A stretch of DNA of 64,000 nt from Deltaproteobacteria bacterium (GCA_029261895.1 JAJDAK010000067.1:12541-76540), one strand, 5' to 3'; shown: positions 2 to 18,045, counted from the stretch's first letter. Translations and numbers: made by a program. Notes: a model not told the origin generated them from the letters alone.

Positions 2-1567
2 TCATTTCCGCTTCTTCCTGCTCTTCTTTGCGTCCCTCTTGCGCTTTCTATCCTGAAACAGCTGGTTCACGCGAAGCGCAAACGGATAGAGCAAGACAGC
101 GAGTACGCGTGAACCGACCGATCGCGCTTCGGGCGCGGGCGACGCCATATTTCCAAGGCTTTCAACTCCGTCGGCGAAAACATCCGTCGCCGACACTTCG
201 ACGCCATGCGGACGAATGAACGCCTTTACGAAGTCATGAGACTGTCGCGCAGCGACGCTTGGCGCCGCGATGGACTCGCTTAATTGTTTCAAATGCTCGT
301 CGAAGCTTCGCGCGGATCGCAAGAGGCCTCCCGCCACATTCAGCAAGTAGTGAAAATGAAGCGTCCCCTCTTGATTGTCCCAGAATTCTGGCTCAAGGAT
401 CGTATGTACTGGCCGTCCTACAATGCCCGCCTCCAAGAACGCGCTGGTATTGAGCCCCACAACCGCGTGACTATGGTGTAACGATTCAAAATAGTCGCTC
501 CGGGACTCGTCATCGATCGGAACGGAGCCCCAGAGCGAAACATTATCGAATCCCGTGAGGTCGATATCGTTCCACAGGTGCATGCGGGTCGGATGGGGAC
601 GGACGAGAAGTCCTGCGCTCCGTAGTTGGGGAAAGGTTGCCGCGCGAATCCGTTCGATCCACTTGTAAACAAACTCCGCCTCACTCGGGCTCCCCGGAAA
701 GAGCGCGGAACACGCGTAGACTAGAAACGGGCGCTCCGGTCGCAATCCCACCTTCTCGCAGAAAGCCTCTCGGGAAAGTTCCGACCCACGGTCGAACCAG
801 TGGTCAAAACACTGCGCACCGGTCACGACCACCCGTTCGCGTGGCACGCCGTGCAGGTCCATCGCTTCGGTTCTTTGGGTTTCGTTCCAAACAAAGATGC
901 GATCCGGGTGATGGCGTAGTACCGCTTTGCTGGAGAGATGATCCCAGCTTGCCACACAGAGTGCCGTACGCAGACCGAGTGTTTTGGAAGCGCGAAGCAC
1001 CTCGAGCTGAGAGGAGCCCAATGCCAGCAACGGCGTAATGAGAACGAGATCTGGCTTCTCTTGGCGCAGAAACTCCAGCAGTGGAATTTGACTCGGTGCC
1101 GCTCTCTCAATCGTGCGTAAGCTCGCGGACAAGATACGAACCGCCCAGCGAGGGAATCGATTCAGGAACGGCAGCCGTTTCCGCACGAAAGGCGCCAAAC
1201 GTGTTCCGGCCCGACGACGCAGCTGCGGGAAACCCTTGTAGCTCTCATCCGAATAGCGGAAATAGTCGAGCAGACGCCGAATTTCGCGTACAAAGAGGAA
1301 CCAGACGCTCTGCTCAGCCGACGGCGCTTTGCCACAAGTAACCGTGGGAAATTCCCGAGTGAGACGGGCAGCCGTTTCGTAGCCTCCCACGTCCTTAGCG
1401 GTTTCAGGAATGATACGGATGCTATGCCCACGTACGGTAAGTTCTTGGATCACCGTGTCATAGATCCGCAAAGATCCTAGATGCGCGACCGAGAAAAGAA
1501 TCCGCAACGGGCGTGACCGTTGTGCATCGCTCCGAACGGGCGTAGCCTCTGCTTCAAACACTGTCAT
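2..1567 (-). CDS. TagF/KpsC-KpsS-like GT-B family protein, paralog A. C-terminus runs past the window start. Likely start is MTVFEAE, overlapping the stop of the upstream paralog by 4 nt.
   Basis: The N-terminal ~470 aa are collinear with the ORFs at 1564..4125 and 5878..7488. Shared blocks include ITPLL..S..L, SWDhLs.KG, VWNE.Q and RPHP...NTSA..EA.IVG.PV.T. The K/R-rich C-terminal tail continues beyond position 1. Confidence 0.6.
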   Translation of the reverse strand: MTVFEAEATPVRSDAQRSRPLRILFSVAHLGSLRIYDTVIQELTVRGHSIRIIPETAKDVGGYETAARLTREFPTVTCGKAPSAEQSVWFLFVREIRRLLDYFRYSDESYKGFPQLRRRAGTRLAPFVRKRLPFLNRFPRWAVRILSASLRTIERAAPSQIPLLEFLRQEKPDLVLITPLLALGSSQLEVLRASKTLGLRTALCVASWDHLSSKAVLRHHPDRIFVWNETQRTEAMDLHGVPRERVVVTGAQCFDHWFDRGSELSREAFCEKVGLRPERPFLVYACSALFPGSPSEAEFVYKWIERIRAATFPQLRSAGLLVRPHPTRMHLWNDIDLTGFDNVSLWGSVPIDDESRSDYFESLHHSHAVVGLNTSAFLEAGIVGRPVHTILEPEFWDNQEGTLHFHYLLNVAGGLLRSARSFDEHLKQLSESIAAPSVAARQSHDFVKAFIRPHGVEVSATDVFADGVESLGNMASPAPEARSVGSRVLAVLLYPFALRVNQLFQDRKRKRDAKKSRKKRK

Positions 1568-4125
1568 CGCAAGTTCCAGTCGGCCCCAAGGCCCAATCGG
1601 AGGGTATCGAGATCGTCTAGATCCAACGCAATAAACCTCCCCGCTCCTAGGGACTGAAATATATCGCGTGCGAGCGCAAGATGGTCCGCTCGAAAACTTT
1701 GCTGGCCGGAATAAAATGAGACCGTATCGACGCCACAAAGCGGGCCAAGATACGAAAATCCGCCGTAGGTTCCGACCAGAGCCCGCGCGTTGGCAATCAA
1801 CTGCGTCTGTACATCCAGGTTGTTCTGCGGCGTAATGAGGTGGCTAATCGTGTGCAAGCGGTCTCGTTGAGCAGCCGTAAAATCTCCATGGTCATCTACG
1901 CGTAGCCCCGTATCGAGCAGCACAACATCGGTTTCACGGGTCAGATTCTCAAGCAACGCAGAAACAAACTGACGGGTGCGGGGATTATCGGGAAAGGCCG
2001 CGCTGTCATAGAACTTGACCGCCACGTAGGAATCCGGGAGCCCCACTAAATCCTGCGATGTTTCCATCGGAGCAAACATTCGATACGAGCTAAAAGACTC
2101 GATCAGTCTAACCGAGGTTTGTTTGCGCCAAAACAGCCGGAACAAATTGTACATCAGCGAAGGATGCAGCCACTGGCTCTGATTAAGGCTCGACGGTTGA
2201 CCTAGCTGCGCAAGAATTTCACGATCGAATGCGGAAACACTTACGTGCTTAAGGTTGCCACCCTGCTGTGCGGTTCGTTCATCGTTCTTCGTGCGAAAAG
2301 TACCCGGCTCAAACAGCTCGAAGATGTCACGGTAGTTCGGAGATATATCTCGGTACCAATGCGACGGACCACCACGTGACAGCACGATCAGTCGGTCGCC
2401 ACGGATTCCCCCGTACGCTTTGGCCCAGTGGAGAAACGGGATCCAATACAGCAGTTCAAAACCAACTTCGGTAATCCAGGGACCCACAACGATGGGTCGA
2501 TCGCCGTCGCCGAGCGCACGGATAGTGTCCTTGGTGGCCTGTACTTCCGGGAACTGCGCAAGCAGATTCTTGGGACGACGTGTCTTTTTCTCGGTTTTCG
2601 ACGGAACACCGCCGCCTTTGAGCTGTGACTTCCGTGGAACGACGGACTCAAGTCGACGACGCAACGAAGCTACACCACGAAATCCCGCAAAAGCCAACGC
2701 CAACGGAAATCGCAGCAGAACACCCCAAACAGGTACTGGCTCGGGCGGCGGCTTTTCGAGCTGCTCCAGACTTTCGATTGCGTCGGCAAGCAGTGGCGTG
2801 CTTGCATGCGCTAGTCCCTGTGGGCGTACGAACGCTCGAAGAAACTGCTCGCCGGTTTTTATAGCGGCATCGGGGTCTTCAAGCGTACGCGACAACGCGC
2901 GCGTGTGTTCACTGAGCGTCGTGCTCAACTGCACGAAGCCGCCATTTTCGGGTACGAGATAATGAAAGTGAAGTGTTCCCTGCTGCCGTCCCGCGTATTC
3001 AGGAACAGCAATGGTATGAACGGCTTTACCTACGATCGCCGCTTCGATCATCGCACTGGTGTTGATACCGACGACGGCAGCGCTGTGATAGAGCGAATCA
3101 AAATAGTCGTCCTGATCGCGTGCATTGACCGCACTGCTTTGCTCTCTGGGCCAAACTGCAACCGCCTCGAGGTCAGTGAAGTCTGCATTCTCCCACGGTC
3201 CCGTATTATAAGGATGCGGCCGAATCAAGACTGCCAGCTCACGCACGGACGGATCATCACTTCTACGCAACGCTTCGATCCAGCCCCGAACCCATTCGAC
3301 TTCCGCACCACGCCCCGCAATAAATCCGGAAGACGCGACGAAGAGAACATAGCGTCGAGAGGCGGGAAGGCCGGCAGCCTGGCAGAACTCTGCATACGTG
3401 CGACTCGGCTTCCGACCGAACCAAGTATCAAAAAGTGGCGTCCCCGTAATCACCACGTTTGACGCGGCGGTCCCATGAAATTCTACCGCTTCCTGTTTTT
3501 GAAATTCATTCCATACGAAGACGCGCTGCGGTTGAACCCGCAGCAGGCCTTTGTTTGTCAGGTTGTCCCAACTGGGGATGCAAACCCCGGTTCGGATCCC
3601 CAATGCCTTGGCGCTCTTAATGAGATCCACCTGCTCCGATGCTGCCTCGACCAACGGGGTGACAATTACTGCGTCGGGATCTTGGGAACGAATAAATTCG
3701 AGGGTCGCAGCATCGCAGGGGAGTGCGCGCTCCGCCGCGGCCAGGACACTCATGCAAAGCTGCACCAGGGCTTCCGGTAAACGGCGCACCCGCATACGAG
3801 CAGCTGAAGCGCCGAAGACCTTACGGATCATCCGCTCACGAAGTGCGTGGGCATCTACGTAGCGAGGGTGAAAAAATCGTAAAACGTCCATCGCGCCGCG
3901 GATCACTCGAGCGATCGATCCCCAGCGACCTGCCCGACTTGGAACTTTGCCGAGCACCCGAATCGAACCGGTACCACGCGCGAGATGATCCCAGCGAATC
4001 GTCTTGTCTTTCTCCATACGATTGATCGCGAGCGACACCTGATGGCCCCGGCGCGATAGTTCTCGCAACGTGGACTCATAGAAGCGTAGATAGTCGGGAG
4101 AAGCGACCACGACGAGAAGCTTCAT
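1564..4125 (-). CDS. TagF/KpsC-KpsS-like GT-B family protein, paralog B (853 aa), with an extra ~380 aa C-terminal domain of unknown function
   Basis: The N-terminal ~470 aa are homologous to paralogs A and C, sharing the SWDNLTNKG and IRPHPYN..GINTSAMIEAAIVGKAVHTI blocks. It lies 18 nt downstream of the ABC ATPase gene on the same strand. Confidence 0.65.
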   Translation of the reverse strand: MKLLVVVASPDYLRFYESTLRELSRRGHQVSLAINRMEKDKTIRWDHLARGTGSIRVLGKVPSRAGRWGSIARVIRGAMDVLRFFHPRYVDAHALRERMIRKVFGASAARMRVRRLPEALVQLCMSVLAAAERALPCDAATLEFIRSQDPDAVIVTPLVEAASEQVDLIKSAKALGIRTGVCIPSWDNLTNKGLLRVQPQRVFVWNEFQKQEAVEFHGTAASNVVITGTPLFDTWFGRKPSRTYAEFCQAAGLPASRRYVLFVASSGFIAGRGAEVEWVRGWIEALRRSDDPSVRELAVLIRPHPYNTGPWENADFTDLEAVAVWPREQSSAVNARDQDDYFDSLYHSAAVVGINTSAMIEAAIVGKAVHTIAVPEYAGRQQGTLHFHYLVPENGGFVQLSTTLSEHTRALSRTLEDPDAAIKTGEQFLRAFVRPQGLAHASTPLLADAIESLEQLEKPPPEPVPVWGVLLRFPLALAFAGFRGVASLRRRLESVVPRKSQLKGGGVPSKTEKKTRRPKNLLAQFPEVQATKDTIRALGDGDRPIVVGPWITEVGFELLYWIPFLHWAKAYGGIRGDRLIVLSRGGPSHWYRDISPNYRDIFELFEPGTFRTKNDERTAQQGGNLKHVSVSAFDREILAQLGQPSSLNQSQWLHPSLMYNLFRLFWRKQTSVRLIESFSSYRMFAPMETSQDLVGLPDSYVAVKFYDSAAFPDNPRTRQFVSALLENLTRETDVVLLDTGLRVDDHGDFTAAQRDRLHTISHLITPQNNLDVQTQLIANARALVGTYGGFSYLGPLCGVDTVSFYSGQQSFRADHLALARDIFQSLGAGRFIALDLDDLDTLRLGLGADWNLR

Positions 4126-4143
4126 AAACTTGGTATCTCCTGG

Positions 4144-4968
4144 CTAAATGAGATCCACATCATCTTCGTCGACCATGCTCAAATCCGCATCATCATCGCC
4201 ATCATCACTTGCGCCACGAAGCTTGTCGACACAGATGGGCAGCACATCGTCCGGAGGCCCGGCGGCGATCAGCTCACCTTTCTCCAACATGAAAACGCGA
4301 TCGATCTGCTGGGGAAGAATATCAAGATGTGGTGACATAAAAATGACCGTTCGGCCGTTTCGTTTGCGTTCAAGCTCCGCGACAAAGCGCCGCCGAAGCT
4401 CCTGCGATCGTGCGCTGGGCAGCCCATCGATGACGAACACATCGGCGCCCGAATACAAGCCAGCGAGCGCGGTACCGACGGTCAAGCAGTCACGTGGGAG
4501 ATCATGAACTTTCGCCTCCTTCCACTCTTGCCAGCCAAAGGTATCGAGAATCGCCTCACCAGCCGTCCGGCGTTCTCGTAGTGGTACGCCAAAAAGCGCC
4601 ATCGACAGTCTGAGGTGTTCGCTGAATAGAATGAAGCGTTTCGCCCCGAGCTTACTCTTGGGTATGAGTACAGCCTTGCCATAAACGCGGACGTGACCTT
4701 GATCGGGTCGTAGCAGCCCAGCGATCAGTCTAGCCAGCGTACTTTTCCCAGAATTTCGTTCGCCCAGCACCAGGACGACTTCACCGGGCTTGATCGAGAA
4801 ACTCAGGTTTCGGAGCGCAGAGATGCTATTGGGAATGTGCGCCTTCCGACGCTGAATGCCGGGTAAGAGCATATCGAAGAATGCACGGGAACGAGCTTGG
4901 TCGAACGATCCGTAGAAAGCTTTCGATACCTGCTTCGCAACGATCGCGCCGGCGGCCCCTTTAGCCAT
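4144..4968 (-). CDS. KpsT/TagH-like polysaccharide ABC transporter ATP-binding protein with degenerate signature and Walker B motifs
   Basis: Walker A is GERNSGKST and the H-loop is MSPHL. The expected signature SSGM reads PRDC and Walker B reads VFVIDG, with Asp-Gly instead of Asp-Glu. The start is chosen at MAKGAAG so it does not overlap the divergent permease. Confidence 0.6.
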   Translation of the reverse strand: MAKGAAGAIVAKQVSKAFYGSFDQARSRAFFDMLLPGIQRRKAHIPNSISALRNLSFSIKPGEVVLVLGERNSGKSTLARLIAGLLRPDQGHVRVYGKAVLIPKSKLGAKRFILFSEHLRLSMALFGVPLRERRTAGEAILDTFGWQEWKEAKVHDLPRDCLTVGTALAGLYSGADVFVIDGLPSARSQELRRRFVAELERKRNGRTVIFMSPHLDILPQQIDRVFMLEKGELIAAGPPDDVLPICVDKLRGASDDGDDDADLSMVDEDDVDLI

Positions 4969-5057
4969 ACAGCATGCCCTCCAGAAGCTCATCCGGGCTT
5001 AACGCCGGAGGACGGTCACCCCGCACTTCGATCGAGGGTACGGGTTCCCATTTTGGA

Positions 5058-5912
5058 GTGCAAGCACTATGCTCCTCGACCGTGATCGAGATTTTCGTCC
5101 TCGGATGGCAGCTTTTTCTACGCGACTTTCGTACTCGCTACCGCCAAGCCTACCTGGGTTACGTCTGGGCTTTTGCTCGGATTGTTTTGACCGGCGGCCC
5201 CATCATCATGGTAGGAAATCAGTTCGGCTTGGGAGAAGCCGACCCGACGGTCGACTACATTCCGTTTGCGTTCGCCGGCACGTTCTTTTTTCAGGTTTTC
5301 TGGGATGGCCTCGTGATGCCTCAATGGATCGGCCGACGGATGCGCGTCATTATGCGAGATATTCCGATCCCTAGCTCGGCTGTGCTCGTCGCTGCAGCGT
5401 GTTACACGGGGTTTAACTCGTTGCTATCCGGGATCGTCCTAACCGTGTTGCTCGTGGTCTTTGACGCGTCAATCGCAGCCACATTCCCACTCATCCTCGT
5501 GAGCTTCCCGGTGGTCATGCTGGCAGGCATCGCCGTCGGAGCGTTCATTTTACCCGTGACTTTCGTCTATCTCGACATCCGCTACGCGCTGACCTTCATT
5601 GCGCCGGTCGTGATGTTCAGCACACCGATATTCTACGTCTCACCCGAGACCGGATTCCTCGCCACAGTAAACACTTGGAACCCACTCACCTATCTGATCA
5701 ACACGCCGAGGGACTGGCTCTTCGCTGGCTTTACCGGGGACGAGCCCCTCTTCGCAGCCATCATCGTATTCGTCTTCATACTGCTGGCAATCGCGTTGCT
5801 GTTTTTGCGACGCGGACTCCCGATCGCACTCGAGCAACTCATCCGCCCTCAGGGTTCGGGCGAGGATCCAAGTCCGATCAATGATCCTCTGGCTCATCCG
5901 GCGGGTAGATAG
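5058..5912 (+). CDS. ABC-2 type (KpsM/Wzm/TagG-like) polysaccharide export permease. Start is uncertain, GTG at 5058 or 5082.
   Basis: It carries the FLRDFRTRYRQAYLGYVWAF motif typical of ABC-2 Wzm/KpsM permeases, followed by about six hydrophobic segments. The ATG-ORF start at 4974 would overlap the divergent ATPase. Confidence 0.65.
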   Translation: MQALCSSTVIEIFVLGWQLFLRDFRTRYRQAYLGYVWAFARIVLTGGPIIMVGNQFGLGEADPTVDYIPFAFAGTFFFQVFWDGLVMPQWIGRRMRVIMRDIPIPSSAVLVAAACYTGFNSLLSGIVLTVLLVVFDASIAATFPLILVSFPVVMLAGIAVGAFILPVTFVYLDIRYALTFIAPVVMFSTPIFYVSPETGFLATVNTWNPLTYLINTPRDWLFAGFTGDEPLFAAIIVFVFILLAIALLFLRRGLPIALEQLIRPQGSGEDPSPINDPLAHPAGR

Positions 5913-7488
5913 CATTTCGAACCCGATCCCGGAGCTCAACCAACAACGCCCGGGCGCGCTTCCGGACAATGCGAAGGGGCCGCGTGAGTCGACGCTGTAC
6001 GCGGTGAGCATCGACGCCCGCCTTCAACGCGAAGGCGACGTTGGCACCGATCGCCAGCGGAAATAGCAAGGGGATGAGTGCGGGGGTCCACGCGGGTCGC
6101 GGTGAACGCGGTACCGGCTGAAGACTTCCCGTTTCCTCAACGACGTCCGCCATTACTGTAGCCGCCGGTGTATCCAACCCTTGAGGGCGCACATAACCAG
6201 AGACGAAGCGCAGACTCTTCTCGTCGGTCTTTGACTCGGTTGCCAACGCCGAACTCAAGTCGGCAATGTGGCGGTCCATGTCGTGCGAAACATGCAGCAG
6301 CCCGCCGTGAAAATGCAGCAGATGCTGGAAGTGAATCGTCTCGACCTGCGACGCACCTAAATCCTGGCGTAGGAGCGTGAAGACGGGTCGCCCGATGATC
6401 GCGGATTCAATCAAGCCGCTCGTGTTCAACCCGATCACTGCATGACTGTGGTACATGGAGTCGTAGTAGTTCGCGCTCGAGGCTGAGTCGATGGGATTCG
6501 CGCCATGACGCGGCCAAATGCTCACGTTCTCGAAACGACCTAGATCGAATGTCTCCCATTGCGCCGCGTTTTGAGGATGGGGTCGGATCAGGATGCCAAC
6601 CTCGTTCAAATCGATTTTTCCGCAGTCACGCAACGTATGCAGCCACTCATCCACAAATTCCCACTCACGCGGGGCAATGAACATCGATGAAGCAAGGTAG
6701 AGCAAATACGGTCGGTCGCTGCGCAAACCCACTTCGCTACAGAATGCGGCTCGATTCGTACTGGGCTCCGCACCGAACCAACGGTCATAGCCGGGGGCAC
6801 CCGTGAGTTTGATGCGCTCCATGGGAACTTGATGCAGGCGGATCGCCTCTTCACGCTGAATTTCATTCCAAACCGCGACCCGGTCCGGAACTTCGTGAAT
6901 CTGTCCTTTGGTCGTTAGATGATCCCAACTCCCGATGCAGAGCAAGCTGGGCAACCCGCGACGACGAGCCGTGCGTACGAGATCCACCTGTTGTGAGCCG
7001 AAGTACAATAAGGGCGTCGTGATCAATACATCGGGCTTATGCGCCTCAATAAAAGCGTCGACCGCACCACTGATCGGAACCGCGCGCTCCAGCGTCTTCA
7101 ACAACGTACCGATCCAACGTCGACCCGTGGAACCTCGGAAGATACCAAAGCTGAGTACCTTCAGCGTCCAACCGGGCAGATGGGATGCTGCACGCGCGCG
7201 GAGCCGCGGGGTGTCGGCGAAACTCGGTTCTAAATAGCGGAGGTAATCGATACAGAGACGAATCGCGCGAGCCAACGCACGCCACATTCCGCTGCTGTAC
7301 CGCGGCTGATCCACGATGGAAACCGAGGTCAAGTCCAGCGCCAGTCGGTCCGCGATTTGACGCTCGTCGGGCTTGCCTTTGCGCTCCGCAAAAAGCAGCA
7401 CCTCATGGCCGCGTTCCGCTAGCGTGCGAACCGTGGTTTCGAAATTGCGCAGGAAGCCGAAATGGGCGGTGAAGAAGATGATCCTCAT
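5878..7488 (-). CDS. TagF/KpsC-KpsS-like GT-B family protein, paralog C (536 aa)
   Basis: It is collinear with paralogs A and B, sharing ITTPLLYFGSQQVDL, GSWDHLTTKG and IRPHPQN..GLNTSGLIESAIIGRPVFTL. It is convergent with the permease, with a 35-nt overlap. Confidence 0.65.
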   Translation of the reverse strand: MRIIFFTAHFGFLRNFETTVRTLAERGHEVLLFAERKGKPDERQIADRLALDLTSVSIVDQPRYSSGMWRALARAIRLCIDYLRYLEPSFADTPRLRARAASHLPGWTLKVLSFGIFRGSTGRRWIGTLLKTLERAVPISGAVDAFIEAHKPDVLITTPLLYFGSQQVDLVRTARRRGLPSLLCIGSWDHLTTKGQIHEVPDRVAVWNEIQREEAIRLHQVPMERIKLTGAPGYDRWFGAEPSTNRAAFCSEVGLRSDRPYLLYLASSMFIAPREWEFVDEWLHTLRDCGKIDLNEVGILIRPHPQNAAQWETFDLGRFENVSIWPRHGANPIDSASSANYYDSMYHSHAVIGLNTSGLIESAIIGRPVFTLLRQDLGASQVETIHFQHLLHFHGGLLHVSHDMDRHIADLSSALATESKTDEKSLRFVSGYVRPQGLDTPAATVMADVVEETGSLQPVPRSPRPAWTPALIPLLFPLAIGANVAFALKAGVDAHRVQRRLTRPLRIVRKRARALLVELRDRVRNAIYPPDEPEDH

Positions 7489-7658: not shown

Positions 7659-8573
7659 ATGGAACCTGAGCTCGACCTGAAATCGCTGGCCAGCCAGCGG
7701 GAGATCGCGGAGATCTTCGCGCCGTACGTACGTGAACGCATGCCCACGGCTTCGGAGGGCTGGATCCGGCTTGCAGAATCGCGCGCGAATAAAAAGAAGA
7801 AGGCCTTGGGGAAGAAGCGCGGGCCGGTGGACCGCACGTCAAAGCTCCTATCACCGCTCGACCCGTCGCTCGGAGATTTGGATCGCGCACGCGAGTGGTT
7901 TTCTCTCAAACTGAGTCCGGAAGGTAAACCCGTCCCCTGTGAGTGGGGCGATGAAGGTCTGATGGCCAAAGGCGTGGGCACCGCCCGCGTGCAACTGTTT
8001 TTGCTGCTTCGGGCGATCGAAGCCCTGCAGCCCGAGAACATTCTGGAAGTTGGATCGGGAAGCGGCATCAACCTCTTCGTTTTGGCCACGCGCTTTCCAT
8101 CCGTCCGCTGCTCGGGACTTGAGCTCGAGCCAGATTCCGTCGCGCGGGCCAAAGCGATCACGCAAGATCCGATGCTGCCTGAGGCTCTTTGTCAGTTTTC
8201 TCCGCTGCCACTCGATACGAACTCGGCCCATACCCGCATCCAGTTCCACCACGGGAATGCTGCCGCCCTGCCGTTCGCCGACGGCTCATTCGATGTTTCA
8301 TTCACCCGGCTCGCTCTCGAACAAATGCAGGACGTTCGTGACCAAGCGCTCACCGAGCTGCGCCGTGTTTCCCGAAAATATGTGGTGATGATTGAGTCCT
8401 TCCGCGACTGGAATGACTCGGGGATTCGGCGCGATTACATACGGTCGAAGAATTATTTTGATGCGTCACTCGAGGACTTGAATCGCTACGGACTCGAACC
8501 GATTCTGGCCTTCAATGACTTTCCGTCCAAGCTGACGCTTAAGCCCGGGATCGTCATTGCGCGTGTACGTTAA
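7659..8573 (+). CDS. Class I SAM-dependent methyltransferase
   Basis: Motif I is ILEVGSGSGINL and the acidic/motif II region is LELEPD...FADGSFDVSF. Confidence 0.7.
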   Translation: MEPELDLKSLASQREIAEIFAPYVRERMPTASEGWIRLAESRANKKKKALGKKRGPVDRTSKLLSPLDPSLGDLDRAREWFSLKLSPEGKPVPCEWGDEGLMAKGVGTARVQLFLLLRAIEALQPENILEVGSGSGINLFVLATRFPSVRCSGLELEPDSVARAKAITQDPMLPEALCQFSPLPLDTNSAHTRIQFHHGNAAALPFADGSFDVSFTRLALEQMQDVRDQALTELRRVSRKYVVMIESFRDWNDSGIRRDYIRSKNYFDASLEDLNRYGLEPILAFNDFPSKLTLKPGIVIARVR

Positions 8574-8593
8574 TCAACAGAGCAGGGCCTGCT

Positions 8594-9535
8594 ATGTTTG
8601 AAAAAATTAACTCGCGAATTCGCAAACGCTTAAACTTTCGCCCAAAGACGAAACCGCCACAGCCAGTAGCAGTTACCGTACAAACACCCAGCCCGGCTGA
8701 GCTTGCTCGACTCTCCAAAGAATTCAATTTAGAACGGATCACACAGCATGTGCACGAACGAATGGCGGCGAGCAAAGTCATTGAAGAACCTGGCCCTCAT
8801 CTAATCGTAGATCATTTACTTCCCAACGACTTCTATCAAAAGCTCGTTGATGCCGTGCCACCCTCGACATATTTCACGGGCGGAGACAACGTCAGGCTAA
8901 AATGCCGGATGAGTACACCCGACCTGCCCCAAGAGACACGAACACTTTGGGGGTTCATGAGCTACGTCGTATGCCCCCAAGTGATTCAACCAGCGACGCA
9001 AGCAAAATTCGCCGCGTATTTTGACGACTTCTACGTTCAGGTCTTCGGCAAGGACATGGTTCGGGATGGCCGCACACTGCCTCGCTCGGTTTCTGATCAG
9101 CGCTTCTTACTTGGACGCCCCGGTTACAAACTCAAGCCACATATGGATCGCAAGCCCGTCTTACTCACGCATCTCTTGTACCTGCCGAAAGACCCCGGCA
9201 GCGATGAGAGATTCGGGACACAACTCTTTAAGGTCGACCGCGAATTCGTGGCCCGTTACGTCGAGACCTACTATCCGGGAAACGATGGCATGCGTTGCGA
9301 ATACCTCAAGAGCATGCCGTATCGCTGGAACACCATGGCAACGTTGATGAATTCGCGCGTCGTGCATGGGGCCGATATTCCCGCCGACCAAGCTCCGCCC
9401 ACCTTAGAGCGGCGAGCGTTTCAATTCTACGTCAGTTTGGATCCCGAACCGCTTGAGGAGTTTGTCGATACCCTGCCCGAAGAACTCCGTACGCCTTGGT
9501 TTGCAGAACGCACATCACTTGCGACGCCGCTTTAG
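8594..9535 (+). CDS. Hypothetical protein, possibly a 2OG/Fe oxygenase-like fold
   Basis: An ORF of 313 aa with plausible codon usage. An HMD ... VVHGAD pattern weakly resembles an HxD...H facial triad. No firm family call. Confidence 0.35.
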   Translation: MFEKINSRIRKRLNFRPKTKPPQPVAVTVQTPSPAELARLSKEFNLERITQHVHERMAASKVIEEPGPHLIVDHLLPNDFYQKLVDAVPPSTYFTGGDNVRLKCRMSTPDLPQETRTLWGFMSYVVCPQVIQPATQAKFAAYFDDFYVQVFGKDMVRDGRTLPRSVSDQRFLLGRPGYKLKPHMDRKPVLLTHLLYLPKDPGSDERFGTQLFKVDREFVARYVETYYPGNDGMRCEYLKSMPYRWNTMATLMNSRVVHGADIPADQAPPTLERRAFQFYVSLDPEPLEEFVDTLPEELRTPWFAERTSLATPL

Positions 9536-10513
9536 AAATTTCTTCCGAGAGCGTCGGTAATAACTAGCCAAGTCACGCAGCGGTCCGTGGCTATACGCTT
9601 TTGCAAAACGAAGCGGCGCTTCCAATCGATGGCGCAAGTAGAGGCGCACCAACGTCGAGAACAAGGCGTCGGGATCATCCGCACGGATCGCCCTCGCCGG
9701 ATTCGGGGTCGCGGGCTTCTGGCCGACAACAAGCAGGTGCTGCACGCTCGACCATCGATCCACGTGATTGGCATACATAATTTTAAAACCGGCTTTCTCC
9801 ACGAAGGCCCGAGTCGAACCGAGCGTCATATGCTGAAAATGCGCGATGGCTGAGTCACCCGAAAGGCTGAAATGCTTGCCGTACGGCCTTGGTCGCGTGA
9901 TGTCTTTCTCGGACACCAGCACCAGACCACCGGGGTTAAGACGCTCATAGCAATCCCGAAGCAGCTTCGTCGGCGAGGGAGAATGCGATGGTACGTGGAT
10001 TGTAAGCATCCCGATGAAGTCGAACTTCCCGGGGATCGTACCCAATAGGTCATTCATGGAGCGCGTATAAAACTGCTCGGAACTAAAATGATTCCTCGCG
10101 AAAGCGATGTTGGCTTCAAATGGATCTACTCCATGTACCTCCGCACCCATCTCAGCAACGATTTCCAAAACAGGCCCACTGCGCGATCGCACTTCAAGCC
10201 ACTTCTTGCCTTGAACGTCTCCGAAACGTTTCACCAGGTCCTCGACGTAGGGGCGAAGCTTCTGAACTCGTTTGTGTAGTTTTTCTGCGGTTACGTCCTT
10301 GGCCCCAGTGGCTTGAGCCCCGGGATCGGAAACGAAACCATCACGTAGCCACGCTTCTAGTGCAGCAGCCGTCTGCCGCGGGTTCGTATACACCAGACCG
10401 CAGTCTCGGCAGATGACCACGGTGTGTGGACGCGTGATGAAACTTGGAAGCGCATGGTAGTCATCGCTTCCACACAAGTCGCAAGCACAGGTTTCACGAT
10501 CGGTTCGCGTCAT
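9515..10513 (-). CDS. SAM-dependent methyltransferase with an N-terminal Cys4 zinc-ribbon
   Basis: An N-terminal CxxC..CxxC pattern (CDLCGS...CRDCG) is followed by VLEIVAEMGAEVHGVDP and LNPGGLVLV class I methyltransferase motifs. Confidence 0.65.
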   Translation of the reverse strand: MTRTDRETCACDLCGSDDYHALPSFITRPHTVVICRDCGLVYTNPRQTAAALEAWLRDGFVSDPGAQATGAKDVTAEKLHKRVQKLRPYVEDLVKRFGDVQGKKWLEVRSRSGPVLEIVAEMGAEVHGVDPFEANIAFARNHFSSEQFYTRSMNDLLGTIPGKFDFIGMLTIHVPSHSPSPTKLLRDCYERLNPGGLVLVSEKDITRPRPYGKHFSLSGDSAIAHFQHMTLGSTRAFVEKAGFKIMYANHVDRWSSVQHLLVVGQKPATPNPARAIRADDPDALFSTLVRLYLRHRLEAPLRFAKAYSHGPLRDLASYYRRSRKKFLKRRRK

Positions 10514-10526
10514 CTTCGCGCTGCTC

Positions 10527-11507
10527 CTAAGGAAGTCGATACGAAAAGTGAGTGAGATCGACCCCGGTCAATTCCGCCATACGTGCATTCCCCCTAACGA
10601 TTTCCTCAATCTCCTGTGCTGAAAACGCATCTTCCAGGCTACCCAGTACATGCGCGCCAGGTCCCTCGCGATCGTTCTTTGCTGCGCGGTGCATCTTCTG
10701 GAGAAGTCCCGGAAGTAATTTCGCCTCAAGTGGGTTCAGGCCTGCCTTATCGGCCAGCATTTTCGCTCGACCCAGGACAAAGCCGTACTCCGGAACTCTC
10801 CCACGCACGACATCAGTCGTAGTCATGAGGGCGTCGAACGATTCTCGGTCAACGCCGAGGAAATCCGGTATCCGCCGGTCGGCGTATTCACCGACACCCG
10901 CAAACATGGCCTCCATGGGAACGACAAGAACCCGCTCGCTTCCGATTATTGAAATCATTTCCTGAATTGGGGGCCAGAGGTTGCAACACTTGAAAGCGTT
11001 CCAGGGTTTGGCGCGTTGGCGATGAGCCCAGTCGCCGAAGCCATCAACGCCGACACTAGTGAAGTGTCGAAAACCCTGAAGGTAGAATGATTCCAGCCAG
11101 CCGCGTTGCTCTCGGATCGTGATCAGTACCTTGAACGGCTTATCAAAGACGCGTTGCAAACGATCCAATGTATCCACCGGGTGATTACGAACCGGAGTGT
11201 AAAAAGACTCGACGGAAAACAGCGTGCAGCGCCACTTAGGATCAGTATTCGACTTCGACGCAACCAACACCTGAAGATACTCTCGAATATCTGCAAGCGC
11301 GGTTTCGAACTCCTGATCCGACGTATGAGAAATATCACGGACGACTTTCTTCGTAAGTTCCCAGTTGGGGAGAACGCCCCATGGCTTGGCAACGTTCTGA
11401 ATCTCTGGATGTTTCGCAAAGACTTCCGTCTGAAGCAACTTGTTGAAGGTGCTCGGCAGTCCGAGATGGATAACGAGTTCAGCTTCGACCATCGCACCCC
11501 CGATCAA
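10527..11507 (-). CDS. Hypothetical protein, possibly sulfotransferase-like
   Basis: ITIREQRGWLES fits the R-x7-S pattern of the 3'-phosphate-binding motif. GLPSTFN is weakly reminiscent of the 5'-PSB motif PKSGTT. Low certainty. Confidence 0.3.
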   Translation of the reverse strand: MIGGAMVEAELVIHLGLPSTFNKLLQTEVFAKHPEIQNVAKPWGVLPNWELTKKVVRDISHTSDQEFETALADIREYLQVLVASKSNTDPKWRCTLFSVESFYTPVRNHPVDTLDRLQRVFDKPFKVLITIREQRGWLESFYLQGFRHFTSVGVDGFGDWAHRQRAKPWNAFKCCNLWPPIQEMISIIGSERVLVVPMEAMFAGVGEYADRRIPDFLGVDRESFDALMTTTDVVRGRVPEYGFVLGRAKMLADKAGLNPLEAKLLPGLLQKMHRAAKNDREGPGAHVLGSLEDAFSAQEIEEIVRGNARMAELTGVDLTHFSYRLP

Positions 11508-11519
11508 AAACCTTTCGCA

Positions 11520-12398
11520 TTATTCACCCGCCAAAACCGCGCGCTGAACCCGACTCAATTGCGCATCTGCAAGAGCGCCAAGCGGTGCACCCTGACGATA
11601 GTCGGTCGGCACGGTAAACGCGAAGGGCGTCAAGTACTGCACCATCAAAACCACCCGCGGGGTCGAGCCGGGCGAGACCCTCGAGCCGTAGTGGAAGCAG
11701 CGGCTCGAGTCGAAGAGACAGACGGTTCCCGGTGGCCCGGTCACAACCTCAGGCGAACGCTCCTCTCGGGCCTCGTCTATCACCGAGTCGGGAATGCGTT
11801 TGGGATAACGGTAGTTAATCCGTGCTCGAATCCGTTCGGATTCCTTCGCAGGAATCAAAGTAAGCGGACCGTTTTCAGGTCCAATATCACTGCAATAGAC
11901 GAAGGCCTTTACCTGCGCTTTATCGTGGGCATCACAGTGAAAAAGCTGGCTGCTCCAAGGCTCCGTATCGCTGGGCTCAGACAGGAAAACTTTGATATTG
12001 GCGAGAATCGGTACCATTCCAAGGTAGCGGCTGACCGCACTGAGAATCTCGGGATTCAGGGCGAAACGAAGAATCGGCGAGTCGAGACTGAGCAGCGCGG
12101 GATCGAGCCGATTCAGCAGGAAAGTCTTGCGGGTTGGCTTATGGGTGGGGTCGTGGAACGTGGTCCGGACCATGGTCTGAGCCATGACCGCGACTTCTGC
12201 GGCTTCCGGAATGCGGTCGTACGCTAGAGTCGCAATTCCGGTCGATTGCGGAATACGGAACGTGGGGCGTGGAAGCGCCCATGTGGCCAGTTGTCGCTGC
12301 ACGTAAGTCGTGGGACGCCTCAACCGTCGAGCCAGCGCATAGAGTCTTCGGCGCCCTTCACGTTGGTTAATGAAATCTTTCTTGATGTCGATCGCCAT
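11520..12398 (-). CDS. Phytanoyl-CoA dioxygenase (PhyH)-like 2OG/Fe(II) oxygenase
   Basis: It carries FHCDAHD (HxD) and a distal CFHYGSRVSPG histidine with LTLIPAKES. The overlapping plus-strand ORF 11106..12227 is R-rich and looks like antisense noise. Confidence 0.5.
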   Translation of the reverse strand: MAIDIKKDFINQREGRRRLYALARRLRRPTTYVQRQLATWALPRPTFRIPQSTGIATLAYDRIPEAAEVAVMAQTMVRTTFHDPTHKPTRKTFLLNRLDPALLSLDSPILRFALNPEILSAVSRYLGMVPILANIKVFLSEPSDTEPWSSQLFHCDAHDKAQVKAFVYCSDIGPENGPLTLIPAKESERIRARINYRYPKRIPDSVIDEAREERSPEVVTGPPGTVCLFDSSRCFHYGSRVSPGSTPRVVLMVQYLTPFAFTVPTDYRQGAPLGALADAQLSRVQRAVLAGE

Positions 12399-12554: not shown

Positions 12555-13658
12555 TTGATCGTTCAGTTTGAAGAGCTGCATCGCTATCGCGGTGAAGTCG
12601 CGATGGTCGATGGGGCGTTCGATCCGCTGCACTACGGTCATATCCGCTACTTCGCCGAAGCGGCAAAGCTCGGGAGCCCGGTTCTGTGCAATCTGGCTCC
12701 AGACACTTACGTATCAGCGAAACACGCACCGCTGCTACCTGCCGAGCAGCGGAGCGAGGTGATAGACGCACTTCGCCACATCGACTACACGCATCTCAAC
12801 GCCTATGACACCGAGGCGGTTCTTGAAGAACTTCGGCCCAAGTATTACGTAAAAGGCTCGGACTGGAAGAGCAAGTTGCCACCCGCTCAAGTGCAAATCT
12901 GCGCCAACCACGGCACGGAGATCGTGTATTTGGATACCGTGCTGGATTCTTCTACCAAGTTGCTCGCATCTTGGCTCGACGAGCGCAGCGATGCGTCATC
13001 ACTCGCGCGCTTTGAACGCTACGCCCAGGATCAAGCGCGAATCGGAGCAGCGCATTACGACGCTGAATACTTCACCACTGATTGGCGCGATGATGGCAAC
13101 TGCTACACCATCGATGCACGACGTGAGATCGAAGGCAAGAATCCAGCACTGATCAAAGAGATTTTCGAACCGCAGCGGGTTTTAGACCTGGGCTGCGGTC
13201 CCGGCTCTCTGATGTTTCTGCTGCAGGAGCAAGGCATCGTCGCGGATGGAGTCGACTTCAGTCCGGGATGCGTCAAGCTCGCACCGCAGGAAGTTCGTGA
13301 GCGCATTATTACCGCGCCGGTGACCGCACCACCGGTTCCCGACAACGCTTATGACCTGGTGATTTGTCGCGAGGTTTTCGAGCACCTGACGATTCTCGAG
13401 GTTCAGCAAGCCGTTGAGCAGATCGCGCGCGTGACATCTAAGTTTGTGTACCTCACGACTCGCTTCCATCCAGAACCACGCGACTTGCTCGACGTCACCA
13501 CACAGTTCGATGTCGATCCCACGCATATTACGCTGCTCAACCAGGACTTCCTTCGCTTGCTCTTCGTGATGCAGGGACTACGACGCCGCAAGGATCTGGA
13601 GCAGCGCATGGACTGGCTCAACAAAGGTCGTGTGCTGGTCTACGAAAAAGAGGCCTAG
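12555..13658 (+). CDS. Bifunctional protein: a TagD-like nucleotidyltransferase (CTP:glycerol-3-phosphate cytidylyltransferase family) fused to a C-terminal class I SAM methyltransferase
   Basis: The N-terminus reads VDGAFDPLHYGHIRYFAEAAKLG, compared with TagD YGTFDLLHWGHIKLLERAKQLG, and YVKGSDW compared with TagD MGDDWEGKF. The C-terminus reads VLDLGCGPGSL...DGVDFS...YDLVICREVFEHL. It starts with TTG and is preceded by a G-rich ribosome-binding site. Confidence 0.65.
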   Translation: MIVQFEELHRYRGEVAMVDGAFDPLHYGHIRYFAEAAKLGSPVLCNLAPDTYVSAKHAPLLPAEQRSEVIDALRHIDYTHLNAYDTEAVLEELRPKYYVKGSDWKSKLPPAQVQICANHGTEIVYLDTVLDSSTKLLASWLDERSDASSLARFERYAQDQARIGAAHYDAEYFTTDWRDDGNCYTIDARREIEGKNPALIKEIFEPQRVLDLGCGPGSLMFLLQEQGIVADGVDFSPGCVKLAPQEVRERIITAPVTAPPVPDNAYDLVICREVFEHLTILEVQQAVEQIARVTSKFVYLTTRFHPEPRDLLDVTTQFDVDPTHITLLNQDFLRLLFVMQGLRRRKDLEQRMDWLNKGRVLVYEKEA

Positions 13659-14604
13659 CGTGGACCCCAGGCAGCGATCATTGGACTGCGTCGTTGGTTA
13701 TCACCTGAATCCGCATACTTGCGGCATCGCCAAGTTCAACCTGGTGCTAGCGCGGCAGCTGCAGGTACCGATTCATGGACTCGCCGACCCGGCCGTACGT
13801 GATCATCCTCGGATTCTGCTTTCGATCAAAACGGAGGAATTCTCCGAGGCTGCGCTCCACCTACTCACGCGTTTTCTCGACGAGCTCAAGCCACAACAAG
13901 AGCTTCAACTCTTCCTCCACGCCTATGCCGATACACCACTCGAACGGCGTTTTCTCGAGCGCGCCGAGCGAGTTTATTGCGGCAATTCCGAGCTCGCGGG
14001 TCGCCTTCGGCCTCACCATCGCCAAGTCGTCGAAGCCTGGTGCCCGGGTTCATTTCTCGAGACTCAGCGCTTTGAGCCATCCGAGCTCACCGTGCTGACA
14101 TTTGGGATGGCCCATAAAGTGCGCGCTTCTCACTTTGAAAAGCTTCAAACCCTATTGGAAGCGACGGGCAAGTCATACAGCCTCTTCGTCTCTACAGCGC
14201 TGCACGAGGGCACCACCTTCGAGGGTAGTTTCGCCAAGGCTTTCGCCCAGATTCAGGAAATCTTCCGAGGCCAAGCCTATTTCCTAGGCTATCTATCGGA
14301 TGCAGGTGTCTACAACTACCTGCTCGATACGACCTATTTTGCCGCATTCTTTGAAAAAGGCGTGCGCGAGAACAACACCAGCGTCAATTCGGCGATGGAA
14401 TGCGGTGCCGTCGTTATCACCAATCTGGACGACCTGTCTCCGGCCACCTACCGGGGCGGTCGAAACCTGATCGATATCGCGACATGCGAGCAGTTACCGA
14501 CGAAAACCGAGGAATTGCAGGAAATTTCGGCAGGAGCGCGACAGAGCGCCGACGAATTTGGCTGGAAGCGGCTGGTGGATCGACTCGCGGGACCCATGTA
14601 CTAG
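13630..14604 (+). CDS. Hypothetical protein, possibly a glycosyltransferase-like C-terminal domain
   Basis: A 324-aa ORF tightly packed in the plus-strand operon, overlapping the upstream stop by 29 nt. No confident motif. Confidence 0.35.
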   Translation: MCWSTKKRPSVDPRQRSLDCVVGYHLNPHTCGIAKFNLVLARQLQVPIHGLADPAVRDHPRILLSIKTEEFSEAALHLLTRFLDELKPQQELQLFLHAYADTPLERRFLERAERVYCGNSELAGRLRPHHRQVVEAWCPGSFLETQRFEPSELTVLTFGMAHKVRASHFEKLQTLLEATGKSYSLFVSTALHEGTTFEGSFAKAFAQIQEIFRGQAYFLGYLSDAGVYNYLLDTTYFAAFFEKGVRENNTSVNSAMECGAVVITNLDDLSPATYRGGRNLIDIATCEQLPTKTEELQEISAGARQSADEFGWKRLVDRLAGPMY

Positions 14605-14672: not shown

Positions 14673-15722
14673 ATGGCTCGTGAGCTCACGATCGGTGGCT
14701 TTCGTATCGACGACGACAGCGACTGTTTCATCATTGCCGAGGTAGGACACAATCACCAAGGCGATATCGAGAAATGCAAAGAACTCTTCCTAGCCGCCAA
14801 GGAATGTGGTTGCCACGCGGTTAAGCTTCAAAAACGAAGCAACCGCACGCTCTTCACCCGCGATATGTATGAGAGCGCGTATGACAACGAAAACAGCTAC
14901 GGCGACACCTACGGTAGCCATCGAGAAGCACTCGAATTTGGCTGGGACGAGTATCAGGAGCTGAAGCGTTATTGCGCGGAGATCCAGATCATCTTCTTCG
15001 CCACGGCATTTGACTTCGAAAGCGCCGATTTTCTGATGAAGCTCGACGTTCCCGCATTCAAGATCGCATCCGGTGACCTCACGAATCTCCCGCTGATCAA
15101 GTACGTGGCGGGATTCGGTCGCCCAGTAGTGATGAGTACCGGCGGCGGCACGATGGAGGACGTTCAACGCGCCTATGACGCGGCCATGCCAATCAACCCG
15201 CAGATCACCATTTTGCAATGTACCGCGGGCTATCCGCCGGATTTTGACCAACTCAATCTGCGCACGATCGAGACTTTTCGAGAGGCCTTCCCCAATATTG
15301 TGATCGGTCTCTCGGCGCATGACAGCGGGATCGCGATGGCACCCGCGGCTTATGTGCTCGGCGCACGAATCCTCGAAAAGCACTTCACCTTGAATCGCGC
15401 CTGGAAGGGCACCGACCATGCGTTCTCCTTGGAACGACCGGGAATGCGGCGCTTGGTTCGAGACCTTCAGCGCACACGAATCGCCCTCGGTGACGGCCAG
15501 AAGCGCCAATACCCGACGGAGAAAAAGCCCTTATTCAAGATGGCAAAGAAACTTGTCGCGGCGCGTGATCTCGCGGTTGGACACCAGCTTACGCGCGAGG
15601 ACATTGCAATTCGTTCCCCGAACGACGGACTTCCCCCGTACGAACTCGAAAACGTCATCGGCAAAGTGCTGAAGCGTTCACTCACGACCGACGAGAATCT
15701 CGGTCATGAGGATTTAGAATAA
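14673..15722 (+). CDS. NeuB-family nonulosonic/sialic acid synthase (PEP-condensing, NeuB/PseI/LegI-like)
   Basis: IIAEVGHNHQGDIEKCKELFLAAKECGCHAVKLQKRS is compared with NeuB IIAEIGCNHNG..A..AGADAVKFQ. The start is taken at MARELTIGG, preceded by GGGGGAGGG. The ORF-track start at 14400 would overlap the previous gene. Confidence 0.75.
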   Translation: MARELTIGGFRIDDDSDCFIIAEVGHNHQGDIEKCKELFLAAKECGCHAVKLQKRSNRTLFTRDMYESAYDNENSYGDTYGSHREALEFGWDEYQELKRYCAEIQIIFFATAFDFESADFLMKLDVPAFKIASGDLTNLPLIKYVAGFGRPVVMSTGGGTMEDVQRAYDAAMPINPQITILQCTAGYPPDFDQLNLRTIETFREAFPNIVIGLSAHDSGIAMAPAAYVLGARILEKHFTLNRAWKGTDHAFSLERPGMRRLVRDLQRTRIALGDGQKRQYPTEKKPLFKMAKKLVAARDLAVGHQLTREDIAIRSPNDGLPPYELENVIGKVLKRSLTTDENLGHEDLE

Positions 15723-15745: not shown

Positions 15746-16564
15746 ATGAACGACAATCTATTCAGTCTTCGCGGCCGACCCATCGTGATCACCGGTGGTC
15801 TGGGACAGCTAGGGCTGCAATTCACGAAAACGCTGTTGGAGCGCGGCGCACGCGTCGCGATTTTTGACCTCGAAGTCGAGGACGATCGGATAAAAACCGC
15901 GCTCGGGCACCGCCCCTCCGAGAGCGAATTGCTAACGCTGAGCGTTGACGTCACCAAACGTATCTCGATCGAGCGCGCACTCGACCAAGTGCGCAAGCAT
16001 TGGTATACCCCGCTGGGGCTGGTGAACAACGCCGCATTGGACTCGCCCCCGGGCGCGGGCGCTGCTGAAAACGGTCCTTTTGAAAATTACCCCGAGAATT
16101 CTTGGGACCGCGTGATGGAGGTCAACACCAAAGGCGTGTTCCTCTGCTCCCAAGTGATTGGCGGCGCGATGGCGGAAGCCGGGCGGGGATCCATCGTCAG
16201 CATCGCGTCCATCTATGGCTTGGTCTCACCAGACCAGAGTCTCTATGAGTATCGACGCCAGCGCGGGGAAGAGTTCTATAAGCCCGCCGCATACGCGGCA
16301 TCGAAATCCGCTCTGCTCAATTTGACGCGATACATGGCGACCTACTGGGCGCCACGAGGCGTCCGCGCCAACACATTGACTCTCGGGGGTGTGTTCAATG
16401 ATCAAGACGAAGAATTCCTGGAGCGCTATCACGCTCGCGTCCCACTCGGACGCATGGCTCAGCCAGAGGACTACAACGGCGCGCTGGTCTTTCTGCTATC
16501 CGACGCGTCTTCGTATATGACCGGTTCAAATCTCATCATCGACGGTGGCTGGACCGCTTGGTAA
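15746..16564 (+). CDS. Short-chain dehydrogenase/reductase (SDR)
   Basis: ITGGLGQLGLQF is the TGxxxGxG motif. NNAA and the Y-x3-K motif YAASKSAL are present. Confidence 0.75.
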   Translation: MNDNLFSLRGRPIVITGGLGQLGLQFTKTLLERGARVAIFDLEVEDDRIKTALGHRPSESELLTLSVDVTKRISIERALDQVRKHWYTPLGLVNNAALDSPPGAGAAENGPFENYPENSWDRVMEVNTKGVFLCSQVIGGAMAEAGRGSIVSIASIYGLVSPDQSLYEYRRQRGEEFYKPAAYAASKSALLNLTRYMATYWAPRGVRANTLTLGGVFNDQDEEFLERYHARVPLGRMAQPEDYNGALVFLLSDASSYMTGSNLIIDGGWTAW

Positions 16565-18045
16565 GGAACACGATGCCTGAATTGCCTTTCCCGCAAGAAA
16601 TTCCCAATTGGATCGAAGGGAAGGAAACGTCCGCCCTTTCCGGCGAGCGGCTGGATAAGTTTTCGCCTGCCGACGGACGCTTGCTTTGCCGCCTCACAGC
16701 GTCGAACGCCCAGGACGTCGAAGTCGCCATCGCTGCCGCACGTGCGGCGGCACCCAGTTGGGCACAAACCTCGGCCGTCACGCGCGGTCAGATCCTACAC
16801 AATATCGTGATGGGCCTTGAGAAAGAACGCGAAGCCGTGGCCCGGACGGTCGCCCTGGAAACAGGAAAGTCGATCAGCGAGGCCCAAGGCGAAACCGGCG
16901 CTGCCATCGCGCAAGGACTCTTCATGTCGGGGGAAGGCCAACGACTCTTCGGCCGGACCATCCCCAGCGGAGGGGTAAATCGGATTCAAATGACCGTACG
17001 CCAACCACGCGGTGTTGCGGGATTGATCATCGCGGCCAACACGCCGATCGCGAACGTGGCTTGGAAAGTCTTTCCGGCATTAATTTGCGGCAATACCGCG
17101 GTGCTCAAAGCGGCCGAAGACACACCCGCGACCGCATGGCTTTTTGCAAAGATCGCGCATGAGGCCGGGTTACCGGCCGGTGTCTTGAATGTAATTCAAG
17201 GAAGTGGCCCCGCGGCAGGTGCTCCATTGGTCGCGCATGCCGACGTGGATGTCGTGAGCTTCACCGGGTCCACCGCTGTGGGCCGTCAGATCGCACGCAT
17301 CGCGGGTAAAAGACTTGCTCATGTCTCGTTGGAACTCGGTGGCAAAAACCCATTGGTGGTCTGCGATGATGCCGATCTTGAAAACGCGGTGCGCTGGGCC
17401 GCACTATCTGCATTTAGCAACGCGGGGCAACGCTGCGCTGCTGGAAGTCGTCTGATTGTTTTCGACGAAGTTTACGCAGCGTTTCGTGACGCACTCGTGA
17501 CGCACACGCAAACGCTGCGGGTAGGCTCCGCCGAAGGCGATGATCTCGGACCCGTGATCAACGAGGGCCAGCTTGGCAAAATGCTTTACGCGATCCGTAT
17601 CGCTAAGTCCGAAGGTGCCAAAGTGATCCTTGGTGGCCATCGAATTACCAATGACGCACGCGCGGCGGGTTACTACATGACACCGACCCTGGTCGAAAAC
17701 GTTAAACCCGACGGCAAGCTATCCACGTTGGAAATTTTCGGCCCGATCGCTGTTCTCTATCGCGTAGCCAATCTAGATGAAGCGTTGGCGTTGGCGAATA
17801 ACTCTCCGTACGGCCTTACCGCATCGATTCATACCAAGAATATCGACCGTGCGCTTCGCTTCGCGCAACATGTCGAAGCTGGAGTCGCGATGGTGAACGC
17901 CGGCACCTACGGTAGCGAGCCCCATATGCCCTTTGGGGGCCGAAAACAATCGGGGAATGGCACACGCGAGCCGGGCACCGAAGCACTCGACGTCTATTCC
18001 GAACTCAAGAACATCTGCATCAATTTCAACCCGGAGGCCAATTAG
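16558..18045 (+). CDS. NAD(P)-dependent aldehyde dehydrogenase
   Basis: LELGGKNP and FSNAGQRCAAGSR carry the catalytic Cys and Glu motifs of the ALDH family. Confidence 0.8.
   Translation: MVRNTMPELPFPQEIPNWIEGKETSALSGERLDKFSPADGRLLCRLTASNAQDVEVAIAAARAAAPSWAQTSAVTRGQILHNIVMGLEKEREAVARTVALETGKSISEAQGETGAAIAQGLFMSGEGQRLFGRTIPSGGVNRIQMTVRQPRGVAGLIIAANTPIANVAWKVFPALICGNTAVLKAAEDTPATAWLFAKIAHEAGLPAGVLNVIQGSGPAAGAPLVAHADVDVVSFTGSTAVGRQIARIAGKRLAHVSLELGGKNPLVVCDDADLENAVRWAALSAFSNAGQRCAAGSRLIVFDEVYAAFRDALVTHTQTLRVGSAEGDDLGPVINEGQLGKMLYAIRIAKSEGAKVILGGHRITNDARAAGYYMTPTLVENVKPDGKLSTLEIFGPIAVLYRVANLDEALALANNSPYGLTASIHTKNIDRALRFAQHVEAGVAMVNAGTYGSEPHMPFGGRKQSGNGTREPGTEALDVYSELKNICINFNPEAN

Follow-up and report, generated by a model that had tools for sequence, protein, structure and literature searches.

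What do the three similar proteins encoded around an ABC transporter in this locus do, and do they belong with the TagF and KpsC/KpsS enzymes, as the original prediction proposed? The window (the whole stretch of 64,000 nucleotides analysed) is a polysaccharide locus with divergent but recognizable GT-B enzymes. The host organism (57% GC) is a diderm, as indicated by SurA and the periplasmic domain of YidC. DnaA boxes were not enriched across the window as a whole.

Gene organization of the locus

The three predicted ORFs were present, all on the minus strand, which had gone unstated: paralog A (2–1567, 521 aa), paralog B (1564–4125, 853 aa, two modules) and paralog C (5878–7488, 536 aa). They are members of an orphan GT-B family, here called FAM, A with a single module. 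The start of A lies on the stop of B in an ATGA overlap, and a fourth FAM paralog, 56% identical to A, begins directly past window position 1, at the left edge. The arrangement around an ABC transporter was also as predicted, with an ATPase gene (4144–4992, minus strand; PF00005, E 2.8e-12) and an ABC-2-type permease gene (4974–5912, plus strand; weak Wzm/RfbD match over 234 aa) between B and C. The probable start of the ATPase is at 4968, giving 274 aa, a length also obtained from an independent gene call. The permease gene is on the strand opposite to all its neighbours and overlaps both of them; in relatives, permease and ATPase follow each other in this order on a single strand. The inverted arrangement was repeated in an independent assembly, and the inverted repeats detected on either side of the permease gene were all short and imperfect.

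Beyond C lie probable tailoring genes assigned with Pfam, namely, two methyltransferases (7659–8573, plus; 9515–10513, minus) and a PhyH-like dioxygenase (11520–12398, minus), with two unknown ORFs among them (8594–9535, plus; 10527–11507, minus). Several genes of this stretch (7659–12398) recur in FAM loci. They are followed on the plus strand by a nucleotidyltransferase resembling RfaE domain II (TIGR02199) fused to a SAM methyltransferase (CT_MT, 12555–13658). Its PF01467 domain matched RfaE domain II (TIGR02199) with E 2.4e-19 and TagD with E 1.8e-7, both under the cut-off. The next gene is a conserved unknown ORF (13630–14604, plus). Both genes are recurrent partners of the GT9-like module described below and of NeuB: CT_MT was followed by this ORF seven times, and this ORF by NeuB six times.

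FAM, a large family of predicted GT-B glycosyltransferases

The claimed mutual paralogy of A, B and C was confirmed by BLASTP, with 36–39% identity over 462–503 aa (E 1e-104 to 1e-121): 38.7% over 488 aa for A and C (E 1e-121), 37.0% over 462 aa for A and B (E 2e-104), and 36.2% over 503 aa for B and C (E 3e-107). The top score in 200 shuffles of C was 26–30 bits. Every shared block listed in the prediction was found. In C, the motifs are SWDHLTTKG (6904–6930), VWNE (6862–6873), RPHP (6574–6585) and NTSG (6415–6426); RPHP is at 590–601 in A and at 3211–3222 in B. The three proteins represent three old subfamilies, and orthologs of each elsewhere are ~50% identical, the best matches to the window proteins (~50% identity) coming from Vicinamibacteria and Planctomycetota.

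FAM comprises 6845 representative clusters and has no Pfam, NCBIfam or PDB membership. Pfam and NCBIfam scans of A, B, C and the C-terminal module of B gave no hit above a family threshold, and searches of PDB sequences with C alone or with the FAM profile gave chance matches only. SWD, K, VWN, RPHP and N-T-S-x3-E were invariant in 32 of 32 members, and the first strand of the C-domain carries an invariant Y-L-C-S-S-P-F. The predicted fold is that of an ordinary GT-B glycosyltransferase. In the predicted structure, the C-terminal Rossmann domain bears the invariant His-Pro (H325 in A, H304 in B and C) directly behind its second strand, followed by the NTS..E helix. Structural neighbours were generic: UDP-GlcNAc 2-epimerases and GT4 enzymes, not CMP-dependent enzymes, were nearest, with TarL at rank 10, TagF at rank 26 and KpsC outside the top 60. 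The prediction that the conserved His occupies the TagF/KpsC catalytic position was thus only partly upheld: the HP motif is invariant after the second strand of the C-domain, but, given such generic neighbours, neither the His position nor the NTS..E motif is diagnostic, and QXXXD is lacking.

A hydrophobic helix was located at aa 470–488 in C (KD 2.09), followed by a polybasic helix, and at aa 464–482 in B (positions 2680–2736, KD 1.69), followed by a basic linker. FAM polypeptides with two or three modules occur. Transferase activity and membrane topology are inferred: FAM would be a large group of GT-B glycosyltransferases that associate with the membrane and as yet bear no family name, A, B and C each being a predicted GT-B-fold transferase.

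The sole named family with a significant sequence match to FAM was NF046086 (the BFO_1060 family), which includes genetically proven Tannerella transferases for pseudaminic (Pse) and legionaminic (Leg) acid (PMC5420450). Among FAM members, 31 of 32 matched it at E <= 0.01 (best E 1.9e-9), including paralog A (E 3.2e-7). The match was confined to profile positions 43–169 of 365, corresponding to the latter half of the N-domain. As A, B and C reached 19–30 bits compared to a curated cut-off of 200 bits, NF046086 is a remote relative, and the three proteins are not members of it.

The second module of paralog B

The FAM module of B is N-terminal (aa 1–508; 2602–4125, minus). The original prediction overlooked a second, unrelated transferase module at aa 509–853 (B_C; 1564–2601, minus). 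It has a GT-B fold nearest to GT9 heptosyltransferases and represents a separate, large, unannotated family with 2847 homologs at E <= 0.001. GT9 enzymes were its closest structural neighbours; the PF01075 profile matched 2 of 31 members (E 0.028) and not the window protein. Kinship between FAM and B_C was considered and rejected (hhalign E 0.81). The fusion recurs, since 44 of 114 ORFs with a B_C module also contained a FAM match, and B_C adjoined the RfaE-II-like gene (CT_MT) in 12 of 21 cases. B is accordingly predicted to be bifunctional, combining a FAM module with a GT9-like module.

ORF D and the ulosonic-acid cassette

ORF D (20682–22391, plus; 569 aa, RVHP at 21837–21848) had been taken for a distant fourth paralog. 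The strings quoted for it are in its sequence; the paralogy is not supported. BLASTP scores against A, B and C were at most 21 bits, under the shuffle controls, and hhalign gave a probability of 1.8% (E 0.027). The profile alignment of D with FAM was collinear and paired HP with HP; such a weak alignment reflects shared-fold similarity only. Homologs of D show 55–66% identity, some of them carrying the name capsule biosynthesis protein. D itself matched PF05159 with 15.2 bits (E 0.015), under the 20-bit threshold, and all 25 of 25 members of its family matched weakly (best E 2.3e-5), which makes D, and not A, B or C, a remote relative of KpsC/KpsS. The emphasis of the original prediction is therefore reversed: D is the one KpsC/KpsS-like protein, yet it is no paralog of A, B and C. 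Searches of PDB sequences with D alone or with the D-family profile gave chance matches only. Invariant in the family are N347-x3-D351, R386-x-H388-P389 and four Cys (93, 100, 124, 127). By sequence, the position of N347-x3-D351 is suggestive of correspondence to QXXXD.

D closes a conserved plus-strand cassette assigned with Pfam and NCBIfam: a NeuB-type synthase (14673–15722), an SDR (15746–16564), an aldehyde dehydrogenase (ALDH, 16558–18045), a PseF-like CMP-sugar synthetase (18047–18808) and a transketolase (18796–20685). The cassette order and the D homolog are kept in Kallotenue and in many metagenome contigs, and D also occurs in Wzx/Wzy-type loci, e.g., in Kallotenue. The product of the NeuB-(HAD)-SDR-ALDH-CMP-synthetase-transketolase-D cassette may be a 3-deoxy-2-ulosaric (dicarboxylic) acid such as Dha. 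Literature searches on the NeuB/transketolase/ALDH cassette returned nothing relevant. FAM was found in only 3 of 80 D loci. None of 76 FAM loci contained a D-type gene, so the CMP-sugar made there must be used by another enzyme.

FAM loci in other genomes

In Acidobacteriota, FAM genes form arrays of up to ~10 genes, next to ABC exporters and CMP-nonulosonate synthesis genes. Among 51 large FAM loci, an ABC transporter homolog was present in 36, and a NeuB, NeuC or CMP-synthetase gene lay within 10 kb in 23; about half had no nonulosonate gene within 10 kb. The window itself combines FAM with NeuB and PseF-like genes. In three loci, Formyl_trans_N, Polysacc_deac_1 and Epimerase_2 genes stood beside the FAM arrays, with CTP_transf_3 in two of the three.

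Proposed function and alternative explanations

In our best explanation, to which we give an even chance, A, B and C are anciently diverged FAM transferases, with a fourth copy past the edge, and assemble an acidic heteropolysaccharide before ABC export; D is separate from them. What the analysis computed directly is the paralogy, the fold prediction, the conservation of motifs, the fusion, the gene neighbourhoods and the separate family of D; donor identity and polymer type we infer. A, B and C would act at the cytoplasmic side of the inner membrane, anchored by the hydrophobic helix and the basic tail. Acting on a lipid-linked acidic heteropolysaccharide, each FAM enzyme would contribute its own residue or linkage, and the adjacent ABC-2 transporter would export the polymer. 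Arg-Pro-His-Pro and the Asn-Thr-Ser-x3-Glu helix probably bind the phosphate and the ribose of the nucleotide donor. This donor would most likely be a CMP-activated ulosonic or nonulosonic acid from the neighbouring genes for the FAM module, and an NDP-sugar supplied by the RfaE-II-like nucleotidyltransferase for the GT9-like module. D would be a KpsC/KpsS-like transferase of its own, devoted to what the NeuB-SDR-ALDH-CMP-synthetase-transketolase cassette makes. The predicted division of labour among non-identical polymerases fits the three old subfamilies with their ~50% identical orthologs; the TagF/KpsC-type membership on which it was modelled does not hold for A, B and C. Several observations count against this best explanation: the ulosonic-acid cassette is linked to D as its transferase, not to FAM, and arrays of up to ~10 paralogs are hard to reconcile with a single donor type. 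Further points against it are the partial match to NF046086 (~30 bits for a cut-off of 200), nearest structures that are not CMP-dependent enzymes, the lack of a D/E-D/E-G motif, and the absence of a nonulosonate gene within 10 kb in about half of the large FAM loci.

As an alternative, A, B and C could be ordinary NDP-hexose transferases (using UDP-, GDP- or ADP-sugars) from a divergent branch resembling GT4/GT28, with the CMP-sugar genes serving only D-type or other enzymes. We regard this as unlikely, because the invariant HP with a preceding Arg is typical of CMP-/CDP-dependent GT-B enzymes and takes the place of the Gly-rich and EX7E signatures found in GT4, the sole significant named match is to nonulosonate transferases, and FAM loci with a CMP-synthetase hold no candidate transferase family other than B_C. 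A, B and C could also be TagF/TarL-like CDP-glycerol or CDP-ribitol phosphotransferases, making a teichoic-acid-like polyol-phosphate chain for TagGH-like ABC export, as the original prediction implied. This assignment is quite improbable: PF04464 matched none of the three window proteins at E <= 0.1 and one of 32 FAM members (E 0.052), the FAM profile retrieved no TagF or TarL from PDB sequences, generic GT-B folds outrank TagF and TarL in structural similarity, RfaE domain II (E 2.4e-19) is by far the nearer match for the PF01467 domain, and the organism is a diderm (SurA, periplasmic domain of YidC).

A, B and C might further be non-transferases, that is, precursor enzymes resembling GT-B-fold sugar-nucleotide 2-epimerases or hydrolases (NeuC/WecB-like). 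This is very improbable: such enzymes exceed true transferases only slightly in Z (21 vs. 19), genuine Epimerase_2 genes adjoin FAM arrays, and arrays of 3–10 divergent paralogs, polypeptides of two or three modules, fusion to a GT9-like module and membrane-anchoring helices are unlike a soluble precursor enzyme. Finally, the HP motif and NTS..E-G-[KR]-P-V resemble PF05159 proteins by eye and the ABC-transporter context is similar, as would be expected of KpsC/KpsS-type retaining beta-Kdo transferases building a Kdo linker. With no match to PF05159 among 32 FAM members, this predicted membership is hardly credible for A, B and C and is largely refuted already.

Novelty and significance

Only tentatively do we propose that FAM is a new CAZy-level family of CMP-ulosonate/nonulosonate transferases, which together with its GT9-like partner forms a modular polymerase system, and that the D cassette leads to an undescribed sugar. 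If so, FAM enzymes, paired or fused with the GT9-like family, would be widespread polymerases for ABC-exported acidic heteropolysaccharides, and the system would be spread in Acidobacteriota (Vicinamibacterales) and in other soil and marine phyla. Acidobacteriota are a dominant soil phylum whose surface polymers are almost uncharacterized. Nonulosonic and ulosonic acid transferases are poorly known (PMC5420450), and literature searches on acidobacterial nonulosonate transferases returned nothing relevant. FAM and its GT9-like partner, both large and covered by no Pfam or NCBIfam model, turn up together and in the company of ABC exporters and CMP-sugar genes; they offer concrete candidates both for new families of glycosyltransferases and for making acidic glycans enzymatically. 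The result for the window itself is more modest than this family-level finding. The D-terminated cassette is present in the cultured Kallotenue papyrolyticum and offers a directly testable route to a CMP-activated sugar that may be of a new kind.

Comparison with known systems

FAM has no profile-level match to TagF, TagB or TarL, it seems to resemble them in structure no more closely than it does GT-B enzymes in general, and the cluster contains no clear CDP-glycerol or CDP-ribitol pathway. TagF reportedly has a pair of catalytic or phosphate-binding His, H444 and H584; the HP histidine of FAM is invariant (H304 in C), and no equivalent was assigned to the second TagF His.

With KpsC/KpsS and WbbB (PF05159; GT107/GT99), A, B and C share an HP motif and an ABC-export setting alone, and their GT-B architecture is typical, unlike that of these enzymes. 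KpsC and KpsS carry an invariant QXXXD with an Asp nucleophile (PMC10148158). No Q...D was found in C, and in A and B there is none near the first strand of the C-domain. The HP motif is present both in FAM (RPHP) and in the D family (R386-x-H388-P389); being common to other CMP-dependent families, it is not sufficient for a KpsC/KpsS assignment. D resembles KpsC/KpsS/WbbB in having HP 37 residues after the invariant Asp of N-x3-D and in its tie to a CMP-ulosonate pathway, and differs from them in N for Q, an invariant four-Cys cluster and a score under the Pfam gathering threshold.

The bacterial sialyltransferases (GT38, GT52, GT80) are likewise GT-B enzymes with an HP motif in the nucleotide-binding domain; in sialyl- and Kdo-transferases, the His of this motif binds the CMP phosphate or donates a proton to it (PMC2169525, PMC10148158). 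GT38, GT52 and GT80 enzymes have both D/E-D/E-G and HP motifs (PMC2169525); [DE][DE]G occurred nowhere in A, B, C or D. From the acidic N-domain motif (SWD189) to H304, C spans 115 residues, compared to 125 in the NmB polysialyltransferase. Tanf_01245 and TFUB4_00887 of Tannerella forsythia transfer pseudaminic and legionaminic acid derivatives and belong to the BFO_1060 family, earlier described as TagB-like with an HP motif. This family and FAM share the GT-B fold, the HP motif and proximity to CMP-nonulosonate synthesis genes. The match is partial (~125 N-domain residues); FAM proteins are longer, with a helical insertion (aa 60–150) and a C-terminal membrane helix, lack D/E-D/E-G, and are encoded in multi-copy arrays with an ABC exporter, not in a locus for protein O-glycosylation.

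The C-terminal module of B is nearest by structure to the GT9 ADP-heptose heptosyltransferases (WaaC, WaaF, TibC), although it superposes over only ~216 of 345 residues and it is encoded in a polymer cluster rather than among genes for LPS core synthesis. As in two-module capsule polymerases (the dual modules of KpsC, the hexosyl-sialyl polymerases NmW/Y), B has two modules in one polypeptide beside an ABC exporter, but both come from uncharacterized families. By analogy, this arrangement suggests the alternating addition of two residues.

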